From: a virus | Taxonomy: Duplodnaviria; Heunggongvirae; Uroviricota; Caudoviricetes | Length of the DNA: 7,208 nt | Virus record (IMG/VR): IMGVR_UViG_3300049596_000585 | Coordinates: 1 to 7,208 of that record | Strand: one strand, 5' to 3' | In this document: piece after piece, positions 1-7,049 of the stretch | How positions within the stretch are numbered: position 1 is the first letter of the stretch | Layout of the letters: each line of letters opens with the position of its first letter | Program-made: the position numbers and the translations under genes | The notes under the pieces: model-generated | The model's database searches: none | What the model was told of the DNA's origin: nothing | What the model saw: only the letters and a program-made list of their open reading frames with translations

Positions 1-782
1 CAGCCGGTGTCAGTGTCCAGTGAGTAGTTATTAAAGCGGATGACCTCCTGACCGAGCCAGCCGTTTATCTCACGGATCCTGTCCTGTAACGGGATAAGCT
101 CATTGCGGACAAAGACCTTTGCCACTTTCTCAATATCACCCAGCGACCCGACGTTCTCCGGCTTGCCGCCCATCAACTGAAAGGGGATGCGGTGCGCGTC
201 CAGCAGGTCTGCGGCACTGGCTTTTTTGATATTAAAAAAATCGTCCTTCGTCGCCACTTCACTGAGCGGGATAATTTTAATGCCGTCGGCTTTTCCCTGT
301 GGGGCATAGAGAAACAGGTTTTTAAAGTTGTTGCGGCCTTTCGACTTCACCATGTTTTCGCGAAGCATTTCGATATCGTTGCGATCCTGCACGGCATCAG
401 TGACGTACATGATGTATCCGGCATGTGCGCCGTTTTCGTAATACTTGCGGCGGAACAGCGTGGCCGACTCATTCAGCCAGGCAGAGTTAAGGGCGCTGAG
501 ATATTCCGGCAGGCCGTACAGCTCCTGATTAATATCGGGCTCCAGCAGGTGAAACACGGAACCGGGCGCGAAGGCTGTCGGTTCGTTGAAGGACGGCACC
601 CACCAGTAAACATCCTCCTCCACGCCACGGCGGGTATATTTTGCCGGTGAGGTTTCCAGTCTGATGACCTTACCGGTGGTGCTGTAACGCTTTTCCAGAA
701 ACGCATTACCGAACACCAGAAAATCCAGCACAAAGCGGCTGAAATCCTGCTGGGAAAGTCGCCGAAAATCGCCAGTGTGCAT
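1..782 (-). CDS. Partial CDS whose 3' end lies beyond the left window edge; phage head/packaging-module protein, tentatively portal (P2 gpQ / PBSX-family-like). The 5' end is uncertain and possibly truncated.
   Basis: Manual translation of the minus strand gives a stop-free frame from at least 782 to position 1 (...LSQQDFSRFVLDFLVFGNAFLEKRYSTTGKVIRLETSPAKYTRRGVEEDVYWWVPSFNEPTAFAPGSVFHLLEPDINQELYGLPEYLSALNSAWLNESATLFRRKYYENGAHAGYIMYVTDAVQDRNDIEMLRENMVKSKGRNNFKNLFLYAPQGKADGIKIIPLSEVATKDDFFNIKKASAADLLDAHRIPFQLMGGKPENVGSLGDIEKVAKVFVRNELIPLQDRIREINGWLGQEVIRFNNYSLDTDTG...). Codon usage is E. coli-like between 1 and about 700. The overlapping + ORF 192..650 in the track translates to low-complexity C/H/R/G-rich sequence typical of an antisense shadow. 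The gene is absent from the ORF track only because it has no stop in the window. There is no Walker A motif, which argues against a terminase ATPase domain. The portal assignment rests on recollection of P2-family portal sequence character, not on a search. The frame stays open upstream to TTG 974, but 783-974 is rich in rare codons (AGG, CGG, CGA, ATA, CTA) and none of the candidate starts (ATG 782, ATG 950, TTG 974) has a Shine-Dalgarno. Confidence 0.45.
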   Translation of the reverse strand, partial: MHTGDFRRLSQQDFSRFVLDFLVFGNAFLEKRYSTTGKVIRLETSPAKYTRRGVEEDVYWWVPSFNEPTAFAPGSVFHLLEPDINQELYGLPEYLSALNSAWLNESATLFRRKYYENGAHAGYIMYVTDAVQDRNDIEMLRENMVKSKGRNNFKNLFLYAPQGKADGIKIIPLSEVATKDDFFNIKKASAADLLDAHRIPFQLMGGKPENVGSLGDIEKVAKVFVRNELIPLQDRIREINGWLGQEVIRFNNYSLDTDTG

Positions 783-914
783 CAGTTCGGTCTGTCGGAA
801 GAAACCCGGAAAGACGGTAAGAAAATTGATTATCCGGCGCGTCCTCTGCTCGGCTTTACCGGTGAGGATGTGCAGATGATTGAAGAGATTATCCTGGCTC
901 ACCTTGAGCGTTAG
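651..914 (+). other. Open + frame ending at TAG 912-914; possible 3' remnant of a rightward gene (candidate tail-completion gpS-like C-terminus) convergent with the AT-rich gene
   Basis: The + frame is stop-free from 651 to 914 (...GKSPKIASVHQFGLSEETRKDGKKIDYPARPLLGFTGEDVQMIEEIILAHLER*). Codon usage between about 777 and 914 is clearly better on + than on - (minus has AGG, CGG, CGA, ATA, CTA). The only in-frame starts are GTG 777 (45 aa), GTG 870 and ATG 876 (12 aa); ATG 876 has a strong SD, GAGGA at 864-868 with a 7-nt spacer. No full-length gene is possible, so this is either a 3' gene remnant or a small ORF. Confidence 0.2.
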
Positions 915-943
915 TTTTATCCAGGCAGAGGCTGATGCGCAAT

Positions 944-980
944 TAAACATTGAGCGGCCATGCTGGTCGCTCAATGTTTA
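944..980. terminator. Perfect 13-bp inverted repeat (944-956 TAAACATTGAGCG / 968-980 CGCTCAATGTTTA) with an 11-nt loop; candidate bidirectional stem-loop between convergent transcription units
   Basis: Read directly from the sequence. It lies 6 nt downstream of the stop of the minus-strand gene 986..1771 and 30 nt downstream of the + frame stop at 914. U-tracts are weak or displaced on both strands (AAUU on minus; UUUUUAUUU about 15 nt downstream on plus), so it is not a canonical intrinsic terminator. Confidence 0.4.
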
Positions 981-985
981 GAGGC

Positions 986-1771
986 TTATGAGTGATTTTT
1001 ATTTGATGCTTTGTATTCTACAACCTTCTTATTGGCGTAAAGGAATTTTGTATATGACAGGAATATAACCAGACCTGAAATGAAATAGATGAGGGATATT
1101 ATTAATAATGCTTTTTTTTGGCTGTTATTATCTTTAATTTCCTGACTTAACCATTCCGAGTCCTCCTCGTTTAGCTGTAAGAGCTTATTGCAGGCGATCT
1201 CAGGAAGTGTGTCTTTTATAAATATGTTTCGTAGCCTCTTGCAATCGGCAAGGCTATAAGTTGTATTGAATTCAACTGTTTTATTGTTGAAGGATAAAAG
1301 AACTTTGTCACTATAAACATAGTACATCATATTTTTATATGGTATGCCTATGGCATCTCTTACTATAGCGGATTGTTTGTTGTGTATATAACATGCGAAG
1401 AGAATATAAATAATGCTGGACAGAATTACAATTATTGTTTTAATTATGTGTGGTGGTTTTGTTATGTCACCCCAGAAGCGAGTAAGAAAAAAATACGATG
1501 TTTTTAGTTTTCCATCAATCAGCCCCTGCTGTATCATTCTCACATCTTCGATGCCTGATACATTGATTCCGTTAATTATTTTAAATAGTTGAATGTCGCG
1601 CCATTTTTTGTCGAGCATTTTTAACTTTCTGTCTGAATACTCAAAATTGAAATGATGTGCAATAAACCTCATAAGATTACTTTTACCAAAGGTAATAAAT
1701 GTTAATGCTATTAATAAAAATAGATACAAAGAGATAAACCACCACGCATTAGTCACATTATCACTGAACAT
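986..1771 (-). CDS. AT-rich 261-aa predicted inner-membrane protein with three TM segments, function unknown; cargo gene in the slot where P2 carries orf30, between the head/tail-completion side and gene V
   Basis: ORF track 986..1771 (-). ATG at 1771-1769 is preceded by SD AGGAG (complement of 1778-1782) with a 6-nt spacer. GC content is roughly 25-35% against about 50-55% in the flanks. Hydrophobic segments: aa 9-28 (AWWFISLYLFLLIALTFITF; DNA 1688-1747), aa 109-129 (IIKTIIVILSSIIYILFACYI; about 1385-1447), aa 221-240 (ALLIISLIYFISGLVIFLSY; 1052-1111). Loop 1 and the C-tail are Lys/Arg-rich, so the positive-inside rule suggests N-out/C-in. The second loop (about 90 aa) carries two Cys. No recognisable catalytic motif. 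Confidence 0.8.
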   Translation of the reverse strand: MFSDNVTNAWWFISLYLFLLIALTFITFGKSNLMRFIAHHFNFEYSDRKLKMLDKKWRDIQLFKIINGINVSGIEDVRMIQQGLIDGKLKTSYFFLTRFWGDITKPPHIIKTIIVILSSIIYILFACYIHNKQSAIVRDAIGIPYKNMMYYVYSDKVLLSFNNKTVEFNTTYSLADCKRLRNIFIKDTLPEIACNKLLQLNEEDSEWLSQEIKDNNSQKKALLIISLIYFISGLVIFLSYTKFLYANKKVVEYKASNKNHS

Positions 1772-1854
1772 TACGCTCTCCTCGAATGTTGTATGGTCGT
1801 TCTACAAATGAATCCAGATAGCATAACTTTTATATATTGTGCAATCTCACACGC
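1772..1854. promoter_or_regulatory. Divergent intergenic control region between the AT-rich gene and the tail operon; candidate late-promoter activator dyad and -10 element
   Basis: Imperfect dyad TTGT-N11-ACAA at 1789-1807. The reported Ogr/Delta-type site of P2/P4 late promoters is TGT-N12-ACA centred near -55, so the spacing here is one short. TATATA at 1831-1836 lies about 36 bp downstream of the dyad centre. There is no SD in front of the V ATG at 1855. On the opposite strand, a TATATA-containing stretch could serve the divergent membrane-protein gene. Confidence 0.3.
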
Positions 1855-2490
1855 ATGAACACTCTCGCAAATATTCAGGAACTCGCGCGCGCACTGCGCA
1901 ACATGATTCGTACCGGCCTTGTCGTCGAAACCAACCTTAAAGCCGGTCGCTGCCGTGTGCAGACCGGTGGCATGTGCACTGACTGGCTTCAGTGGCTGAC
2001 CCATCGTGCCGGACGTTCGCGCACATGGTGGGCACCTTCCGTGGGGGAACAGGTGCTGATTCTGGCTGTGGGCGGTGAACTCGACACGGCGTTCGTTCTG
2101 CCGGGGATTTATTCCGGCGATAACCCCGCGCCGTCTGCGTCGGCGGATGCCCTGCATATCCGTTTCCCTGACGGGGCGGTGATTGAGTATGAACCCGAAA
2201 CCAGTGCACTCACGGTAAGCGGAATTAAAACGGCCAGCGTGACGGCTTCTGATTCTGTTACTGCCACGGTGCCGGTGGTCATGGTGAAAGCATCAACCCG
2301 CGTCACCCTGGACACACCGGAGGTGGTTTGCACCAACAGGCTGATTACCGGCACGCTGGAAGTGCAGAAGGGCGGGACGATGCGCGGCAACATTGAACAC
2401 ACCGGCGGTGAACTCTCATCAAACGGTAAGGTACTGCATACCCATAAACACCCCGGCGACAGCGGCGGCACAACCGGGAGCCCTCTATGA
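1855..2490 (+). CDS. V: Baseplate spike/assembly protein gpV (P2 V-like, Phage_base_V family)
   Basis: The ORF track frame 1837..2490 starts at TTG, but the internal ATG at 1855 gives a 211-aa product (MNTLANIQELARALRNMIRTG...HKHPGDSGGTTGSPL) matching the length and sequence character of P2 gpV. It is first in the V-W-J-I-H order, and its stop overlaps the W start (ATGA at 2487-2490). Confidence 0.9.
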   Translation: MNTLANIQELARALRNMIRTGLVVETNLKAGRCRVQTGGMCTDWLQWLTHRAGRSRTWWAPSVGEQVLILAVGGELDTAFVLPGIYSGDNPAPSASADALHIRFPDGAVIEYEPETSALTVSGIKTASVTASDSVTATVPVVMVKASTRVTLDTPEVVCTNRLITGTLEVQKGGTMRGNIEHTGGELSSNGKVLHTHKHPGDSGGTTGSPL

Positions 2491-2834
2491 CAGCGCGTTA
2501 TCTCGGAATGAATTGCAGTGATGGCCTGACTGTCACTGACCTTGAGCATATCAGCCAGAGTATCGGCGATATCCTGCGCACACCGGTCGGCTCGCGGGTG
2601 ATGCGTCGTGATTACGGCTCGTTGCTGGCGTCAATGATTGACCAGCCGCAGACCCCGGCGCTTGAGTTGCAGATTAAGGTCGCCTGTTACATGGCGGTGC
2701 TGAAATGGGAACCCCGCGTCACCCTGTCATCCGTCACCACTGAGCGCAGTTTTGACGGGCGAATGACGGTCACCTTAACCGGCCAGCACAACGACACCGG
2801 CCAGCCACTTTCGTTAACCATCCCTGTGAGTTGA
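2487..2834 (+). CDS. W: Baseplate wedge protein gpW (GPW/gp25-like)
   Basis: ORF track 2487..2834, 115 aa, the same length as P2 gpW. SD GGGAG at 2476-2480 with a 6-nt spacer. Start overlaps the V stop, consistent with translational coupling. Confidence 0.9.
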   Translation: MTARYLGMNCSDGLTVTDLEHISQSIGDILRTPVGSRVMRRDYGSLLASMIDQPQTPALELQIKVACYMAVLKWEPRVTLSSVTTERSFDGRMTVTLTGQHNDTGQPLSLTIPVS

Positions 2835-2838
2835 AACC

Positions 2839-3747
2839 ATGCCGATTATCGACCTGAACCAGCTACCCGCACCGGATGTGGTCGAGGAGCTGGACTTTGA
2901 AACCATTCTCGCCGAACGCAAGGCGACACTGATTTCCCTTTACCCGGAAGCCCAGCAGGAGGCGGTCGCCCGTACCCTGACGCTGGAATCCGAGCCTCTC
3001 GTCAAATTGCTGGAGGAAAATGCTTATCGTGAGCTTATCTGGCGTCAGCGTGTGAATGAGGCCGCACGGGCGGTGATGCTGGCCTGTGCCGCGGGTAATG
3101 ACCTTGATGTGATTGGTGCCAATTACAACACCACGCGTCTGACTATCACCCCGGCAGATAATTCGACTATCCCGCCGACACCGGCAGTGATGGAATCTGA
3201 TACCGATTATCGTCTGCGTATTCAGCAGGCGTTTGAAGGTTTAAGCGTCGCCGGGTCGGTGGGTGCCTATCAGTATCATGGTCGCAGTGCTGACGGGCGT
3301 GTCGCGGATATCTCTGTCACCAGTCCGTCTCCGGCCTGCGTCACCATCTCTGTGCTGTCACGTGAGAATAACGGTGTCGCATCCGAAGACCTGCTGGCGG
3401 TGGTGCGTAACGCCCTGAATGGCGAGGACGTCAGACCGGTGGCCGACCGCGTGACCGTGCAGTCTGCCGCCATTGTTGAATACCAGATAAACGCCACGCT
3501 TTACCTTTACCCTGGTCCCGAAAGCGAACCCATCCGCGCTGCTGCCGTGAAAAAACTGGAAGCGTACATCACGGCACAGCACCGGCTGGGGCGCGACATC
3601 CGTCTGTCTGCCATTTATGCCGCTTTGCATGTGGAAGGCGTGCAGCGTGTCGAACTGGCTGCACCGCTGGCCGATATCGTGCTTAACAGCACGCAGGCGT
3701 CTTTCTGTACTGAATACCGCGTCGTGACCGGAGGCTCGGATGAGTGA
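2839..3747 (+). CDS. J: Baseplate assembly protein gpJ (Baseplate_J family)
   Basis: ORF track 2839..3747, 302 aa, the same length as P2 gpJ. Sits at the canonical position after W, 4 nt after the W stop. Confidence 0.9.
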   Translation: MPIIDLNQLPAPDVVEELDFETILAERKATLISLYPEAQQEAVARTLTLESEPLVKLLEENAYRELIWRQRVNEAARAVMLACAAGNDLDVIGANYNTTRLTITPADNSTIPPTPAVMESDTDYRLRIQQAFEGLSVAGSVGAYQYHGRSADGRVADISVTSPSPACVTISVLSRENNGVASEDLLAVVRNALNGEDVRPVADRVTVQSAAIVEYQINATLYLYPGPESEPIRAAAVKKLEAYITAQHRLGRDIRLSAIYAALHVEGVQRVELAAPLADIVLNSTQASFCTEYRVVTGGSDE

Positions 3748-4270
3748 TTCGCGACTGCTGCCGACCGGCTCATCACCGCTTGAGGTCGCCGCCGCAAAAG
3801 CCTGTGCGGAAATTGAAAAAACACCGGTCAGTATTCGTGAGCTGTGGAACCCGGACACCTGCCCGGCAAATCTGCTGCCGTGGCTGGCGTGGGCGTTTTC
3901 GGTCGACAGATGGGATGAAAAGTGGCCGGAAGCGACAAAACGCGCCGTTATCCGCGATGCGTATTTCATCCACTGTCATAAAGGCACTATAGGTGCAATC
4001 CGGCGTGTGGTGGAGCCGCTAGGCTATCTAATTAACGTAAAGGAATGGTGGGAGACAAACGACCCGCCCGGAACCTTCCGCCTTGATATCGGCGTACTGG
4101 AAAGCGGCATCACGGAGGAGATGTATCTGGAAATGGAACGGCTGATTGCCGATGCCAAACCCGCAAGTCGCCACCTTATCGGTCTGAACATTATCCAGGA
4201 CATTCCCGGCTATCTGTATACAGGCGGTGTGGTCTGTGATGGTGATGTTATTACTGTTTATCCCGGATAA
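3740..4270 (+). CDS. I: Baseplate/tail-fibre attachment protein gpI (P2 I-like)
   Basis: ORF track 3740..4270, 176 aa, the same length as P2 gpI. SD GGAGG at 3730-3734 with a 5-nt spacer. The ATG overlaps the J stop by 8 nt (ATGAGTGA). Confidence 0.9.
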   Translation: MSDSRLLPTGSSPLEVAAAKACAEIEKTPVSIRELWNPDTCPANLLPWLAWAFSVDRWDEKWPEATKRAVIRDAYFIHCHKGTIGAIRRVVEPLGYLINVKEWWETNDPPGTFRLDIGVLESGITEEMYLEMERLIADAKPASRHLIGLNIIQDIPGYLYTGGVVCDGDVITVYPG

Positions 4271-4280
4271 GTGAGAAACA

Positions 4281-7049
4281 ATGAGCACGAAATTTAAAAC
4301 CGTTATCACTACTGCCGGAGCCGCAAAGCTGGCAGCCGCCACTGTCCCCGGCGGGAAAAAAGTAACCCTGTCTGCAATGGCCGTGGGTGACGGTAATGGC
4401 AAATTGCCGGTGCCGGATGCTGGTCAGACGAAACTGGTGCATGAGGTCTGGCGTCACGCCCTGAATAAAGTCAGCGTGGATAACAAGAATAAAAACTATA
4501 TCGTGGCTGAACTGGTTGTACCGCCAGAAGTGGGCGGCTTCTGGATGCGTGAACTTGGTCTGTATGACGATGCCGGAACACTGATTGCGGTCGCTAACAT
4601 GGTAGAAAGCTATAAGCCTGAACTGGCTGAAGGCTCCGGGCGTGCGCAGACCTGCCGCATGGTTATTATTGTCAGTAACGTGGCGTCTGTTGAGCTGAGT
4701 ATTGATGCCAGCACGGTGATGGCGACGCAGGATTACGTCGATAAAGCCATATCCAGTTTTCATCGTACTGTCATTGATGATGTGGTTCTTCAGCATAAAG
4801 TTGTCCACGATATTGACTACGCCGGGATTTTTGACGGTGCGGATAATATGAGTCAGGGGTTCTGTATCTGTGATACGCCGCAGGGAACCAGAATGTTTCT
4901 GCATCAGCCTGTATCGGGTGGCGTAAGGATTGTTGAAACGACATTTAACCCTGACGGAGAAAACGAAAACCCGACGGTCATTTCGTTTTCTCCCGTTTTC
5001 GCTGATATTGGTCACCAGAGTATCGGGGCTGTATGTGAAGACGGTCGCGTGATGCTGTATACCCCGACCGCTGACGGCAAGGGTGTGAATATCATCAACT
5101 GGAATGGGGCTGACACCAGTCTGTTGATTGTTCAGTCAAGTAATGAAGCCGTCCATCTTCATTACAACAGGGATGACCGCCGCACAGTTTATGTTTTCGA
5201 TCGCGCTTCTCTGACGTTTAAACACCGGATTTATCTGTCCACCCAGTCAATGGTGTCGCAGGCATTTCAGGGGATGGCCAGCGATGGTCATTATCTGTTT
5301 GCTTATTACGGTTATACAGGCGTATTTCTGACTCACCGCATTGTTGTATATAACCTGTCAACGGGCGAAGTTGTCAGACAGTTCAATGTGGATGGCGTTC
5401 GTGCCAGGTATGGCCGCCAGAAAATGCTGGGGAATGCAGAGCTGGGGTATCCCGTTTTGCAGGAAGCCGAAGGGCTGGCTCTTCATAACGGAAAACTGTA
5501 TCTGCTCGATATGGATTTCTGGTGTCAGACAGCAGATGTGGTTTCTTTTGAGGGGGCATACTTTGCAGCACGTGCAACAAATTTTTCTGGCCGTTCCCCG
5601 GTGAATCCATCTTACTGGACGCCTACAGCATATGGAACGGCGGCTGCAACGAAATATGATGCCACGAAGTCTTATACGTGTGGCGTGGCGACAAAACGCA
5701 GCAAAGCTGTGGTTTCCGTGGAGGCTTACGACGGCACAGGCTATCTGGTGGACTCCGGCGTGGCGTTTCCTGACAGCCATGCTAGCCTTTTTCTGAGTCC
5801 CAATGCTGTAAATATTGCCCTGTCACCCAATGAAGACTTCCAGGTGGCAGCCTATGAGCAGAATCTGCGCTCGCATCGCCCGTTATTTGAGGTCAGAAAG
5901 GAGGCTCCGGATACAGACACTTCTGCTGCTGTTTTTCGTTTGTACGGGGATGCGTTCCGAACCGGAGAATACACAGGCCGCTTCGTTCAGTGGAAACACC
6001 GACTGAACACCGTGCACGATTGTCTGGAAATACGCGCTGACGTGGATTTGTTGAGCGGTGGCGGGATTAACCTTTACTCAATGAACGATACTCAGTCGGC
6101 GGGGCGCACAAGGCTTTATTGTACCGATGGCAGTGAGACCTGGTCTGTATTATTGAGTCCGGTCTCGCCGGCATTTCATCCCGACCAGGACAAGGCAATG
6201 AATCTGGGGTCATCGCCAAATCGCTGGAATGTGGCATACCTGCAGGGCGTGAATATTAAATCGGATGACGAAACCCAGAAGCGCATGGCCATCAGCACCA
6301 CGCTGAAGGCGGGAGCTTTCCAGGTATCAACAGCCGGGAATCTGGGTATTTATGACGATTCTGCTGACGCTTATGTAATTGCAGCCCGTAGTGACGGCAC
6401 TGCATTCATGCAGATGGATACAGATATTAACGGTGCATTCCGGCCATCGGTTAACAATACCAGCGACCTGGGTGCGCCCAACAAAGCGTTCCGGAGCGTG
6501 TATCTCTGCAACTCGCCGACCGTTGTGTCGGATGCGACGTTAAAGGATACACCGCGCGATGCGACGGCAGCCGAAAACGCGGCATTTGCAGAAATAGCAC
6601 GGCTTCCGGGCGTGTGGCGCTGGTTACAGAGAATTGAGGAGGAGGGCGAGGACGCGCGTCTGCACGCCGGGCCGACAGTCCAGGCCGCGATAGCGGTGAT
6701 GGAGAAACACGGTCTGGACTGGCGGAAATACAGCGCATTTTGTCTGGATTCGTGGGAAGCGGAGGAGGCACAGTACGAAGATATACCGGAAGAGTATGAA
6801 GATATTCCGGTTCAGCCAGCGATTTATTCGGATGAAGGGGAGCTGTTGAGCGGGACAACTCGTGTGCTTACCCGACAGGCGGAAAGGGTTCTTGTTCGCC
6901 CTGCAACCGAAGCAGGAAGCCGTTATCGCTTCCGGAAAGAGGAGCTTCTCTGGTGGTGTCTACGTGCTGTTGTCAGCCAGGTGGATTTGTTAATGGAACG
7001 CTTTGTTGACTTAAATCGTCGTTTGATGAAGTTGGAGACTTCAGAATAA
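4281..7049 (+). CDS. H: Tail fibre protein gpH-like, mosaic: P2-type N-terminal anchor (about aa 1-160), divergent distal receptor-binding region (about aa 161-749), C-terminal S74-type intramolecular chaperone domain (aa 750-922)
   Basis: ORF track 4281..7049, 922 aa, against about 669 aa for P2 gpH. The N-terminus (MSTKFKTVITTAGAAKLAAA...WRHALNKVSVDNKNKNYIVAELVVPPEVGGFWMRELGLYDDAGTLIAVANMVESYKPELAEGSGR...TQDYVDKAI) has the conserved P2 H anchor character. The remainder does not resemble what I recall of P2 H. The C-terminus carries an SDATLK motif followed by ...RLHAGPTVQAA... and a terminal heptad-like segment (LLWWCLRAVVSQVDLLMERFVDLNRRLMKLE), the pattern of Peptidase_S74 intramolecular chaperone domains. 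Confidence 0.9.
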   Translation: MSTKFKTVITTAGAAKLAAATVPGGKKVTLSAMAVGDGNGKLPVPDAGQTKLVHEVWRHALNKVSVDNKNKNYIVAELVVPPEVGGFWMRELGLYDDAGTLIAVANMVESYKPELAEGSGRAQTCRMVIIVSNVASVELSIDASTVMATQDYVDKAISSFHRTVIDDVVLQHKVVHDIDYAGIFDGADNMSQGFCICDTPQGTRMFLHQPVSGGVRIVETTFNPDGENENPTVISFSPVFADIGHQSIGAVCEDGRVMLYTPTADGKGVNIINWNGADTSLLIVQSSNEAVHLHYNRDDRRTVYVFDRASLTFKHRIYLSTQSMVSQAFQGMASDGHYLFAYYGYTGVFLTHRIVVYNLSTGEVVRQFNVDGVRARYGRQKMLGNAELGYPVLQEAEGLALHNGKLYLLDMDFWCQTADVVSFEGAYFAARATNFSGRSPVNPSYWTPTAYGTAAATKYDATKSYTCGVATKRSKAVVSVEAYDGTGYLVDSGVAFPDSHASLFLSPNAVNIALSPNEDFQVAAYEQNLRSHRPLFEVRKEAPDTDTSAAVFRLYGDAFRTGEYTGRFVQWKHRLNTVHDCLEIRADVDLLSGGGINLYSMNDTQSAGRTRLYCTDGSETWSVLLSPVSPAFHPDQDKAMNLGSSPNRWNVAYLQGVNIKSDDETQKRMAISTTLKAGAFQVSTAGNLGIYDDSADAYVIAARSDGTAFMQMDTDINGAFRPSVNNTSDLGAPNKAFRSVYLCNSPTVVSDATLKDTPRDATAAENAAFAEIARLPGVWRWLQRIEEEGEDARLHAGPTVQAAIAVMEKHGLDWRKYSAFCLDSWEAEEAQYEDIPEEYEDIPVQPAIYSDEGELLSGTTRVLTRQAERVLVRPATEAGSRYRFRKEELLWWCLRAVVSQVDLLMERFVDLNRRLMKLETSE
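6528..7046 (+). other. C-terminal intramolecular chaperone / autoproteolysis domain of the tail fibre (Peptidase_S74-like); predicted cleavage just before Ser750 with a Ser750/Lys755 dyad
   Basis: TCG (Ser750) at 6528-6530 begins SDATLK, with Ser and Lys spaced 5 residues apart as in the endosialidase-type S-D-x-x-x-K dyad. Downstream are an R-x-H-x-G...Q block (ARLHAGPTVQAA) and a C-terminal amphipathic helix. Domain length is about 173 aa. Assignment is by motif recognition only. Confidence 0.6.

Follow-up and report, generated by a model that had tools for sequence, protein, structure and literature searches.

A probable 8,266-bp deletion scar joins fragments of the portal gene Q and the tail-completion gene S in the defective P2-like prophage of Escherichia coli B

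Introduction

Phage P2 (AF063097) is one described system with which the locus considered here can be compared directly. On each side of a joint in this locus the gene order of P2 is kept, with nucleotide identities of 97.6% in the portal gene Q and 94% across S-orf30-V, and both the terminator hairpin between S and orf30 and the start of V are the same. The gene H is a point of difference, as that of the locus is much longer than P2 H and has a Peptidase_S74 chaperone domain at its end. A closer counterpart is an apparently intact sister prophage in the genome KOr021 (NZ_CP091703.1), which lies directly upstream of yegQ, as does the prophage P2*B of E. coli B, and which follows the canonical P2 order, Q-P-O-N-M-L-X-Y-K-lysA-lysB-lysC-R-S-orf30-V. 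For Orf30, V, W, I and FI its protein accessions are those of the prophage of the B strain REL606, and in both prophages a GT2 gene lies downstream of H. Unlike the B element, however, the KOr021 prophage has complete head, lysis and tail modules, and its cargo is a DUF7380 gene where B has an ABC-three-component system in the same place.

A further comparison is offered by the R-type pyocins and other tailocins, which, like P2*B, derive from a P2-type contractile tail module that is without its head genes. Tailocin loci have kept a complete set of tail genes and a lysis cassette, with regulation of their own, whereas in P2*B the tube, tape-measure, tail-completion and lysis genes have been deleted or truncated. 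The mobile-element table of PMC3032704 puts P2*B at the cyaR site and gives K-12 no more than a remnant, ogr-D', at that position.

Here we describe a joint in P2*B at which a fragment of Q directly adjoins a fragment of S. With a probability of roughly 0.97, this region was left by a single deletion of 8,266 bp, or by a nested series of deletions, in a P2-like prophage integrated at yegR/cyaR-yegQ in E. coli B.

The window and its host element

The window is the whole stretch of DNA that was analysed, 7,208 nucleotides from a viral sequence record. It corresponds to REL606 (NC_012967.1) 2105092-2112389 at 99.9-100% identity, with an identical Q'-'S joint, and the whole window with its joint is also present in 10 other B-lineage complete genomes. 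No complete genome that was searched is identical to it. It differs from REL606 by 3 substitutions (7, 30 and 1263) and lacks, in frame, 90 bp of H after 5123; the 11 complete B-lineage genomes show none of these changes. What lies beyond the window was inferred from REL606-like genomes. Judged by its nucleotide sequence, the window is part of the defective P2-like prophage P2*B of E. coli B, that is, of REL606 and its relatives. Its assignment to the P2-like phages (Peduovirus) reflects nucleotide identities of 92-99.8% to P2 and other Peduovirus genomes and P2 gene order on each side of the joint, together with amino acid identities of 84-99.6% to P2 Q, S, Orf30 and V.

The REL606 element lies between yegR and yegQ and includes int, an HTH repressor, cox, the replication gene A and ogr. 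When integration was examined in REL606, a 27-bp core common to both ends of the prophage was found; BL21(DE3), which is without the whole prophage, has an empty site. What the REL606 prophage keeps is int, C, cox, B, A, a defence-type cargo, orf30, V-W-J-I-H, FI and ogr, and RefSeq flags four pseudogenes in it. Upstream of the Q fragment stand the replication gene A and the ABC-three-component cargo, and there is no head module. P2*B, about 22 kb long, is defective and unable to form either heads or tails. The adjoining Q and S fragments are themselves already known, as both are in the RefSeq annotation and the element has long been known.

An adjacency of this kind could in principle come from an assembly or sequencing artefact that joined distant parts of an intact prophage. 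Nothing in the data speaks for this, and it is the least probable of all the readings considered, with a likelihood close to nil: the identical 121-bp junction is found in 11 separate complete-genome records, and REL606 matches the window at a single place, where the joint is present once, and neither Q nor S is duplicated.

Truncated portal and tail-completion genes

Both genes that meet at the joint are incomplete. The portal gene Q is represented by a pseudogene remnant at 1-758 on the minus strand, in which codons 93-344 are kept and the first 92 codons are deleted; position 1 of the window falls inside the Q stop codon. The minus strand of 1-1000 is one long open frame, and from about 758 down to 1 it reads as phage portal protein. 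In a BLASTX search of 1-985 against P2 proteins, Q residues 93-342 aligned with the window from 758 down to 9 at 99.6% identity. At the nucleotide level the fragment is 97.6% identical to P2 188-945 and 99.6% identical to the KOr021 portal gene. Its match to the Pfam family Phage_portal covers only profile positions 56-286 of 321, and the RefSeq label in REL606 reads 'phage portal protein, incomplete, missing N-terminus'.

The second partner is a pseudogene remnant of S, the tail-completion or virion morphogenesis gene, at 759-914 on the plus strand, where codons 100-150 and the stop codon (TAG, 912-914) are kept. Codon 99 (AAG) is ambiguous in that it lies inside the microhomology described below, so that the S-derived span is 756/759-914, or the last 51-52 codons. 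The same BLASTX search aligned S residues 100-150 with 759-911 at 98% identity and returned only noise for R (E = 2.8), against a set of P2 proteins that excluded P. The Pfam family Phage_tail_S is matched at profile positions 98-148 of 148 only, and RefSeq labels the fragment in REL606 'phage virion morphogenesis protein, incomplete, missing N-terminus'. The whole of 1-985 is accounted for: Q covers 1-758, S covers 756-914, and the remainder, 915-985, is the spacer between S and orf30, which holds the terminator hairpin.

An earlier sequence-only reading of the window had anticipated much of this arrangement. It had placed a leftward head gene close to the gene in the orf30 slot, and the Q fragment indeed stops about 230 bp from that gene (986-1771, minus strand); it had seen no room for R and S, and both R and an intact S are absent. 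It had also described the plus strand as coding-like over 651-914 and ending at 914 in the manner of gpS. The end is correct, since the S stop codon lies at 912-914, but only 756/759-914 on the plus strand derives from S, and the open frame at 651-758 is merely the antisense of Q, which is coded on the minus strand. The boundary that it had set at about 780 has to be moved some 25 bp to the left, to the joint at 752-758.

The joint at base resolution and the missing stretch

A three-way alignment of the window and REL606 with both the KOr021 and the P2 parental sites places the deletion joint at GGGAAAG, 752-758. On the Q side the parental sequence at the joint is ...CTGGGAAAG|CCACGG, and on the S side it is ...GGCGGGAAG|TCGCCG. 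Q and S share exactly the 3 nt AAG (756-758), and the imperfect match is 6/7. In the parental-site alignments there is no IS element, foreign DNA or extra base between the two fragments. Megablast against phage genomes splits the window in the same place, into segments that overlap at 752-758: the first, 1-758, matches portal genes (97.6%), and the second, 752-2000, matches S-orf30-V at 92.7% in P2 and 99.8% in Peduovirus P24A7b. In P2 coordinates, window 1-758 is 188-945, and 752-2547 is 9206-11000 (94.1%, collinear).

The KOr021 prophage, which is 99.6% identical to the window in the Q fragment and 99.9% identical from S through H, has the two breakpoints at positions 4740 and 13007 of its locus (L003), so that 8,266 bp (L003 4741-13006) are missing from the window. 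The equivalent in P2 is 946-9211, likewise 8,266 bp, with 13 complete genes and parts of Q and S. As the flanks match, at 99.6-99.9%, loci that lie 8.27 kb apart in intact relatives, the adjacency of Q and S is not a matter of chance. Among the genes for heads and packaging, the stretch takes the first 92 codons of Q, the terminase genes P and M, the scaffold gene O, the capsid gene N and the head-completion gene L. It further takes the tail genes X and R (tail completion) and two thirds of S, the lysis genes for the holin Y and the endolysin K with lysA, lysB and lysC, and the divergent pP/pO late-promoter region of the P2 annotation.

A competing account of the gene order is that of an intact phage lineage with a module order other than that of P2, in which a portal gene naturally stands beside a short S-like gene. 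Apart from the unusual adjacency itself nothing favours this account, whereas Q and S are both truncated relative to homologues that are 99.6-99.9% identical in DNA and that keep the P2 order in KOr021, as they do in P2. Moreover, of 5,426 complete E. coli genomes just 11, every one from the B lineage, contain the 121-bp junction sequence, against about 1,640 in which its two halves are present at separate places. The canonical order in KOr021 and P2 and the strain distribution of the joint refute such a lineage, and its probability is vanishingly small.

A deletion within a P2-like prophage is the reading that stands, and its core had been foreseen from sequence, as a fusion between the inside of a head gene read leftward and the 3' end of gpS, with loss of the terminase, capsid and lysis genes. 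The fusion partners proved to be Q from residue 93 and S residues 100-150; the terminase, capsid and lysis genes all lie inside the 8,266-bp stretch defined by KOr021, in keeping with the proposed defective prophage. The other order that had been offered as an alternative is refuted by relatives 99.9% identical, in which the P2 order is canonical and the genes are complete. The BLASTX comparison suggested in the same reading recovered Q and S only, with R at the level of noise. Three observations had been named there as speaking against a deletion, namely a full-length portal gene, a plus-strand segment without a homologue and a complete head module upstream; instead, Q begins at residue 93, the plus-strand segment is homologous to S, and in REL606 no head module lies upstream.

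Retained genes and the loss of tail functions

Between S and orf30, a 17-nt inverted repeat at 944-980 is the putative terminator of the P2 O operon (P2 9397-9433), an assignment made by transfer of coordinates from the AF063097 annotation. Its arms, at 944-960 and 964-980, are 94% complementary. Beyond it lies an intact homologue of orf30 (986-1771, minus strand), which codes for 261 amino acids with hydrophobic segments, has a GC content of about 32-34% and is 84% identical to P2 Orf30 over its full length. The protein is the same in REL606 and KOr021 (WP_000490543.1), and the window differs from REL606 at 1263 within the gene. Pfam gave no match above the cutoff for Orf30, with only DUF6535 below threshold, and PADLOC returned nothing for the orf30 homologue or the portal fragment. 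orf30 is a nonessential P2 gene and the usual occupant of this slot, not foreign cargo.

Downstream of orf30 a putative binding site for the late-promoter activator Ogr at pV (1786-1813, plus strand) was located by transfer of coordinates from P2 10239-10266; from its retention we infer only that the V operon may keep its own promoter. Baseplate and tail-fibre genes follow on the plus strand over 1855-7049, each an open frame in the list of open reading frames: V (1855-2490), W (2487-2834), J (2839-3747), I (3740-4270) and H (4281-7049). In H, Pfam recognizes the N-terminal domain of a tail-collar fibre and a Peptidase_S74 domain.

Such a run of tail genes might suggest a tailocin-like remnant, in which only head and lysis genes were lost and the contractile tail remained usable as a headless killing particle; the sequence-only reading had indeed proposed an intact tail module. 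In favour of this, the window has intact frames for all of V, W, J, I and H, accessions are identical between REL606 and the intact KOr021 prophage for V, W, I and the sheath protein FI, ogr is kept in REL606, and the pV promoter region is retained. Against this, the deletion between Q and S itself takes X and R, each an 'essential tail gene' in the P2 annotation, and two thirds of S. In addition, REL606 has a second deletion, of 4.3 kb, which truncates the tube gene FII to its 5' part and D to its 3' part, fuses the two and removes E, E', the tape-measure gene T and U. No lysis cassette is left by which particles could be released. A complete set of tail genes and a lysis cassette of its own are both absent, and for REL606-like genomes the losses of X, R, S, FII, E, E', T, U and D already refute a tailocin, which is accordingly to be regarded as extremely improbable. 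P2*B is, rather, a defective prophage, from which 8,266 bp and a further 4.3 kb (FII'-'D) are absent in comparison with the prophage of KOr021.

Expression of the fragments

Neither the Q nor the S fragment has a start codon, a Shine-Dalgarno sequence or a promoter of its own. A scan of 500-2000 for promoters and terminators found no promoter-like site near the joint, and the terminator-like matches at 743-724 (minus strand) and 897-909 (plus strand) were no more than are found in shuffled sequences. The minus-strand frame is open across the joint, from 977 to 1, with ATG codons at 950 and 782, and a chimeric gene running from 977 down to 1 was considered and rejected: the ATG at 950 lies in the terminator hairpin (944-980), and that at 782 has no Shine-Dalgarno-like sequence upstream. 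Both fragments are regarded as presumably inert pseudogenes.

Origin of the deletion and decay in a sister strain

Flanks that are collinear with an intact reference, the lack of any insertion and the few bases shared at the joint are the marks of a microhomology deletion. The deletion may have arisen by illegitimate recombination at a very short microhomology (GGGAAAG / GGGAAG, 3 nt exact), which would have brought codon 93 of Q, a leftward gene, up against codon 99/100 of S, a rightward one. The outcome is an immobilised prophage unable to lyse the host cell, to build heads or to package DNA and, with the second deletion between FII and D, unable to make tails as well.

A sister strain, H1827/12, provides a parallel case. 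It is 99.9-100% identical to REL606 over the yegS-yegR flank, the early region of the prophage and the ABC-three-component cargo; its prophage has the same integration site as in B and has also lost head and lysis genes by microhomology deletion. All four of its breakpoints differ from those of B, and hence the deletions were independent events. Such near identity combined with other breakpoints implies that the losses are secondary, the prophage of the common ancestor having been more complete and having decayed separately in the two lineages. How closely the surviving genes match their counterparts in intact prophages indicates that the losses are recent. Besides the Q'-'S joint, with AAG exact and 6/7 imperfect, the joints examined were FII'-'D of REL606 (an imperfect 15-nt overlap, about 4 nt exact) and, in H1827/12, Q'-'lysB (6-nt microhomology TCACCA) and J'-'D (4-nt microhomology TTAC). 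All four joints have short microhomology, of 4-15 nt in the three other than Q'-'S, and no inserted DNA, a signature that suggests illegitimate, RecA-independent recombination or replication slippage.

The left deletion of H1827/12 (L003 4934-11855) falls wholly within that of B (L003 4741-13006), and stepwise decay of prophages is common. One may therefore ask whether the B joint was reached in stages, through at least two nested deletions, as when a smaller one of the Q'-'lysB type is later enlarged. H1827/12 cannot be such an ancestor, as its right deletion (J'-'D) exceeds the one in B and ends at another breakpoint on the D side. No intermediate with a B-type right side was found, and the joint bears no trace of an older scar. 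A nested series is on the whole unlikely, although it too would make the region a scar of deletion in a P2-like prophage.

Similar patterns of loss are seen more widely. B and H1827/12 have each independently lost head and lysis genes and some tail genes and have kept int/cox, cargo, orf30 and ogr. At least 3 other P2-like prophages have further independent deletions of the P'-'S type.

Implications

The joint explains why the P2-like prophage of E. coli B, a background in wide laboratory use, can yield no phage, heads, tails or lysis. What adjoins there is a pair of pseudogenes, from Q and S, rather than a novel order of genes, and it has little import beyond correct annotation. The sequence of the joint could also serve as a marker of prophage-bearing E. 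coli B derivatives, with only 11 B-lineage records having it among the complete genomes searched.

Historically, the hybrid phage P2 Hy dis presumably had the defective prophage of E. coli B as its donor. The literature found on P2 Hy dis consists of papers that use the phage, none of which states an origin from the B prophage. Megablast of the int-C-cox region of REL606 against the phage collection returned no P2 Hy dis record, the best match being vB_EcoM-720R8 (99.4%).

Whether the loss of the head-lysis block was selected rather than neutral, as a domestication of a P2 prophage that carries defence genes, is a tentative and on balance doubtful proposition. If the prophage were domesticated, its surviving genes from V to H could be a reservoir for recombination with incoming P2-like phages. 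Still more speculative is the idea that the portal fragment might be expressed by read-through from orf30 and poison the assembly of superinfecting P2-like phages; neither a Shine-Dalgarno sequence nor a promoter lends it support.

Taken together with the joints of the sister strain, the Q'-'S joint provides a clean, small example of the stepwise, microhomology-mediated decay of a prophage, in which the functions of integration and excision, the cargo and some tail genes outlast the genes for heads and lysis.

Deletions in the E. coli B prophage and its relatives

The loss of the head, packaging and lysis genes is not the only deletion carried by the defective prophage of E. coli B. In REL606 a second joint lies outside the window (L001, the REL606 locus, 31163-31227). 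There the tube gene FII breaks off after its 5' part and continues, across an imperfect 15-nt overlap, as the 3' part of D; 4.3 kb comprising E, E', T and U has gone relative to the intact sister prophage of KOr021. A sister copy of the E. coli B prophage in H1827/12, which shares its flanks, early region and ABC-three-component (ABC-3C) cargo with REL606, likewise bears two deletions, a Q'-'lysB joint (L004, the H1827/12 locus, 6921-6976; 6.9 kb) and a J'-'D joint (L004 10253-10306; 12.7 kb). Their breakpoints differ from those of the E. coli B prophage and the events are independent; the two prophages are a case of parallel decay. In three more P2-like prophages, those of FAHZZU6014 (L005), MFDS1001074 (L006) and TB06052 (L007), independent deletions have fused P, the terminase gene, by its 3' end to either lysC/R/S or S. 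Among P2-like prophages, losing the head-lysis block looks recurrent, these last three being a biased sample because the query demanded that Q and S lie close together.

Cargo and tail-region genes

Just upstream of window position 1, the REL606 prophage carries an ABC-3C system (L001 15993-19684) that is flanked by the replication gene A on one side and the portal gene on the other and is made up of an ABC-3C protein, a middle component 4 and an AAA/SMC-type ATPase. This slot is presumably the P2 site for cargo genes such as old/tin. The KOr021 prophage differs in having a DUF7380 gene at this position, and the ABC-3C cargo recurs at 97% identity in many P2-like prophages of O157:H7.

Within the window, the homologue of orf30 (986-1771) is AT-rich, with a GC content of about 32-34% against 55-60% in the neighbouring genes. 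Its product contains several hydrophobic segments, and neither Pfam, above cutoff, nor PADLOC gave a match for it; at 84%, its identity to P2 Orf30 is the lowest among the four P2 proteins compared.

The tail-fibre gene H (4281-7049, plus strand) encodes 922 residues in the window versus 952 in REL606, as 90 bp of the REL606 gene (30 codons, in frame) are missing at 5118-5124. Short repeats flank this gap (..CCAGTCTG/ACAG ... AGCCTG/TTGATTG..). All top matches, those from all 11 B-lineage genomes and from the intact relatives among them, align over H in two pieces, a pattern consistent with the same 90-bp gap as that found against REL606. The H protein combines an N-terminal P2 tail-collar domain with Peptidase_S74, an endosialidase-type intramolecular chaperone domain, at residues 750-812. 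In both REL606 and the intact KOr021 prophage, no gpG-type assembly gene is annotated 3' of H, which is followed by a family 2 glycosyltransferase gene in reverse orientation and a small ORF (L001 27351-28656 in REL606).

Point differences and the B lineage

Three single-base differences separate the plus strand of the window from REL606: T>G at position 7, T>A at 30 and T>G at 1263. The first two change the portal fragment at its final residues, while the third falls within the orf30 homologue. Since REL606 and the ten other B-lineage genomes have equal megablast scores, these ten probably carry the REL606 alleles at all three positions. The window therefore derives from a B-type genome outside the set of complete genomes searched. 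Two of the three substitutions are A:T>C:G changes, and one could speculate that they bear a mutT-like signature.

The B-specific joint and the prophage are also present, at 99.9-100% identity, in NZ_CP029371.1, a genome with the label 'Escherichia coli strain C, cow's milk'. At 4.61 Mb it matches the B strains in size, and it seems to belong to the B lineage, not to classical E. coli C.

Loss of the prophage from BL21(DE3)

In BL21(DE3) yegQ directly adjoins yegR (L008, NC_012971.2, 15900-16650). The sequence there is identical to the left flank of the REL606 prophage joined to its right flank with a 27-bp overlap, the two copies of which lie at L001 9937-9963 and 32083-32109 in REL606, and therefore the whole defective prophage of about 22 kb has been lost at its att core. 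Precise excision is the presumed route, which suggests that, in the defective prophage, int/cox and the att sites stayed usable.
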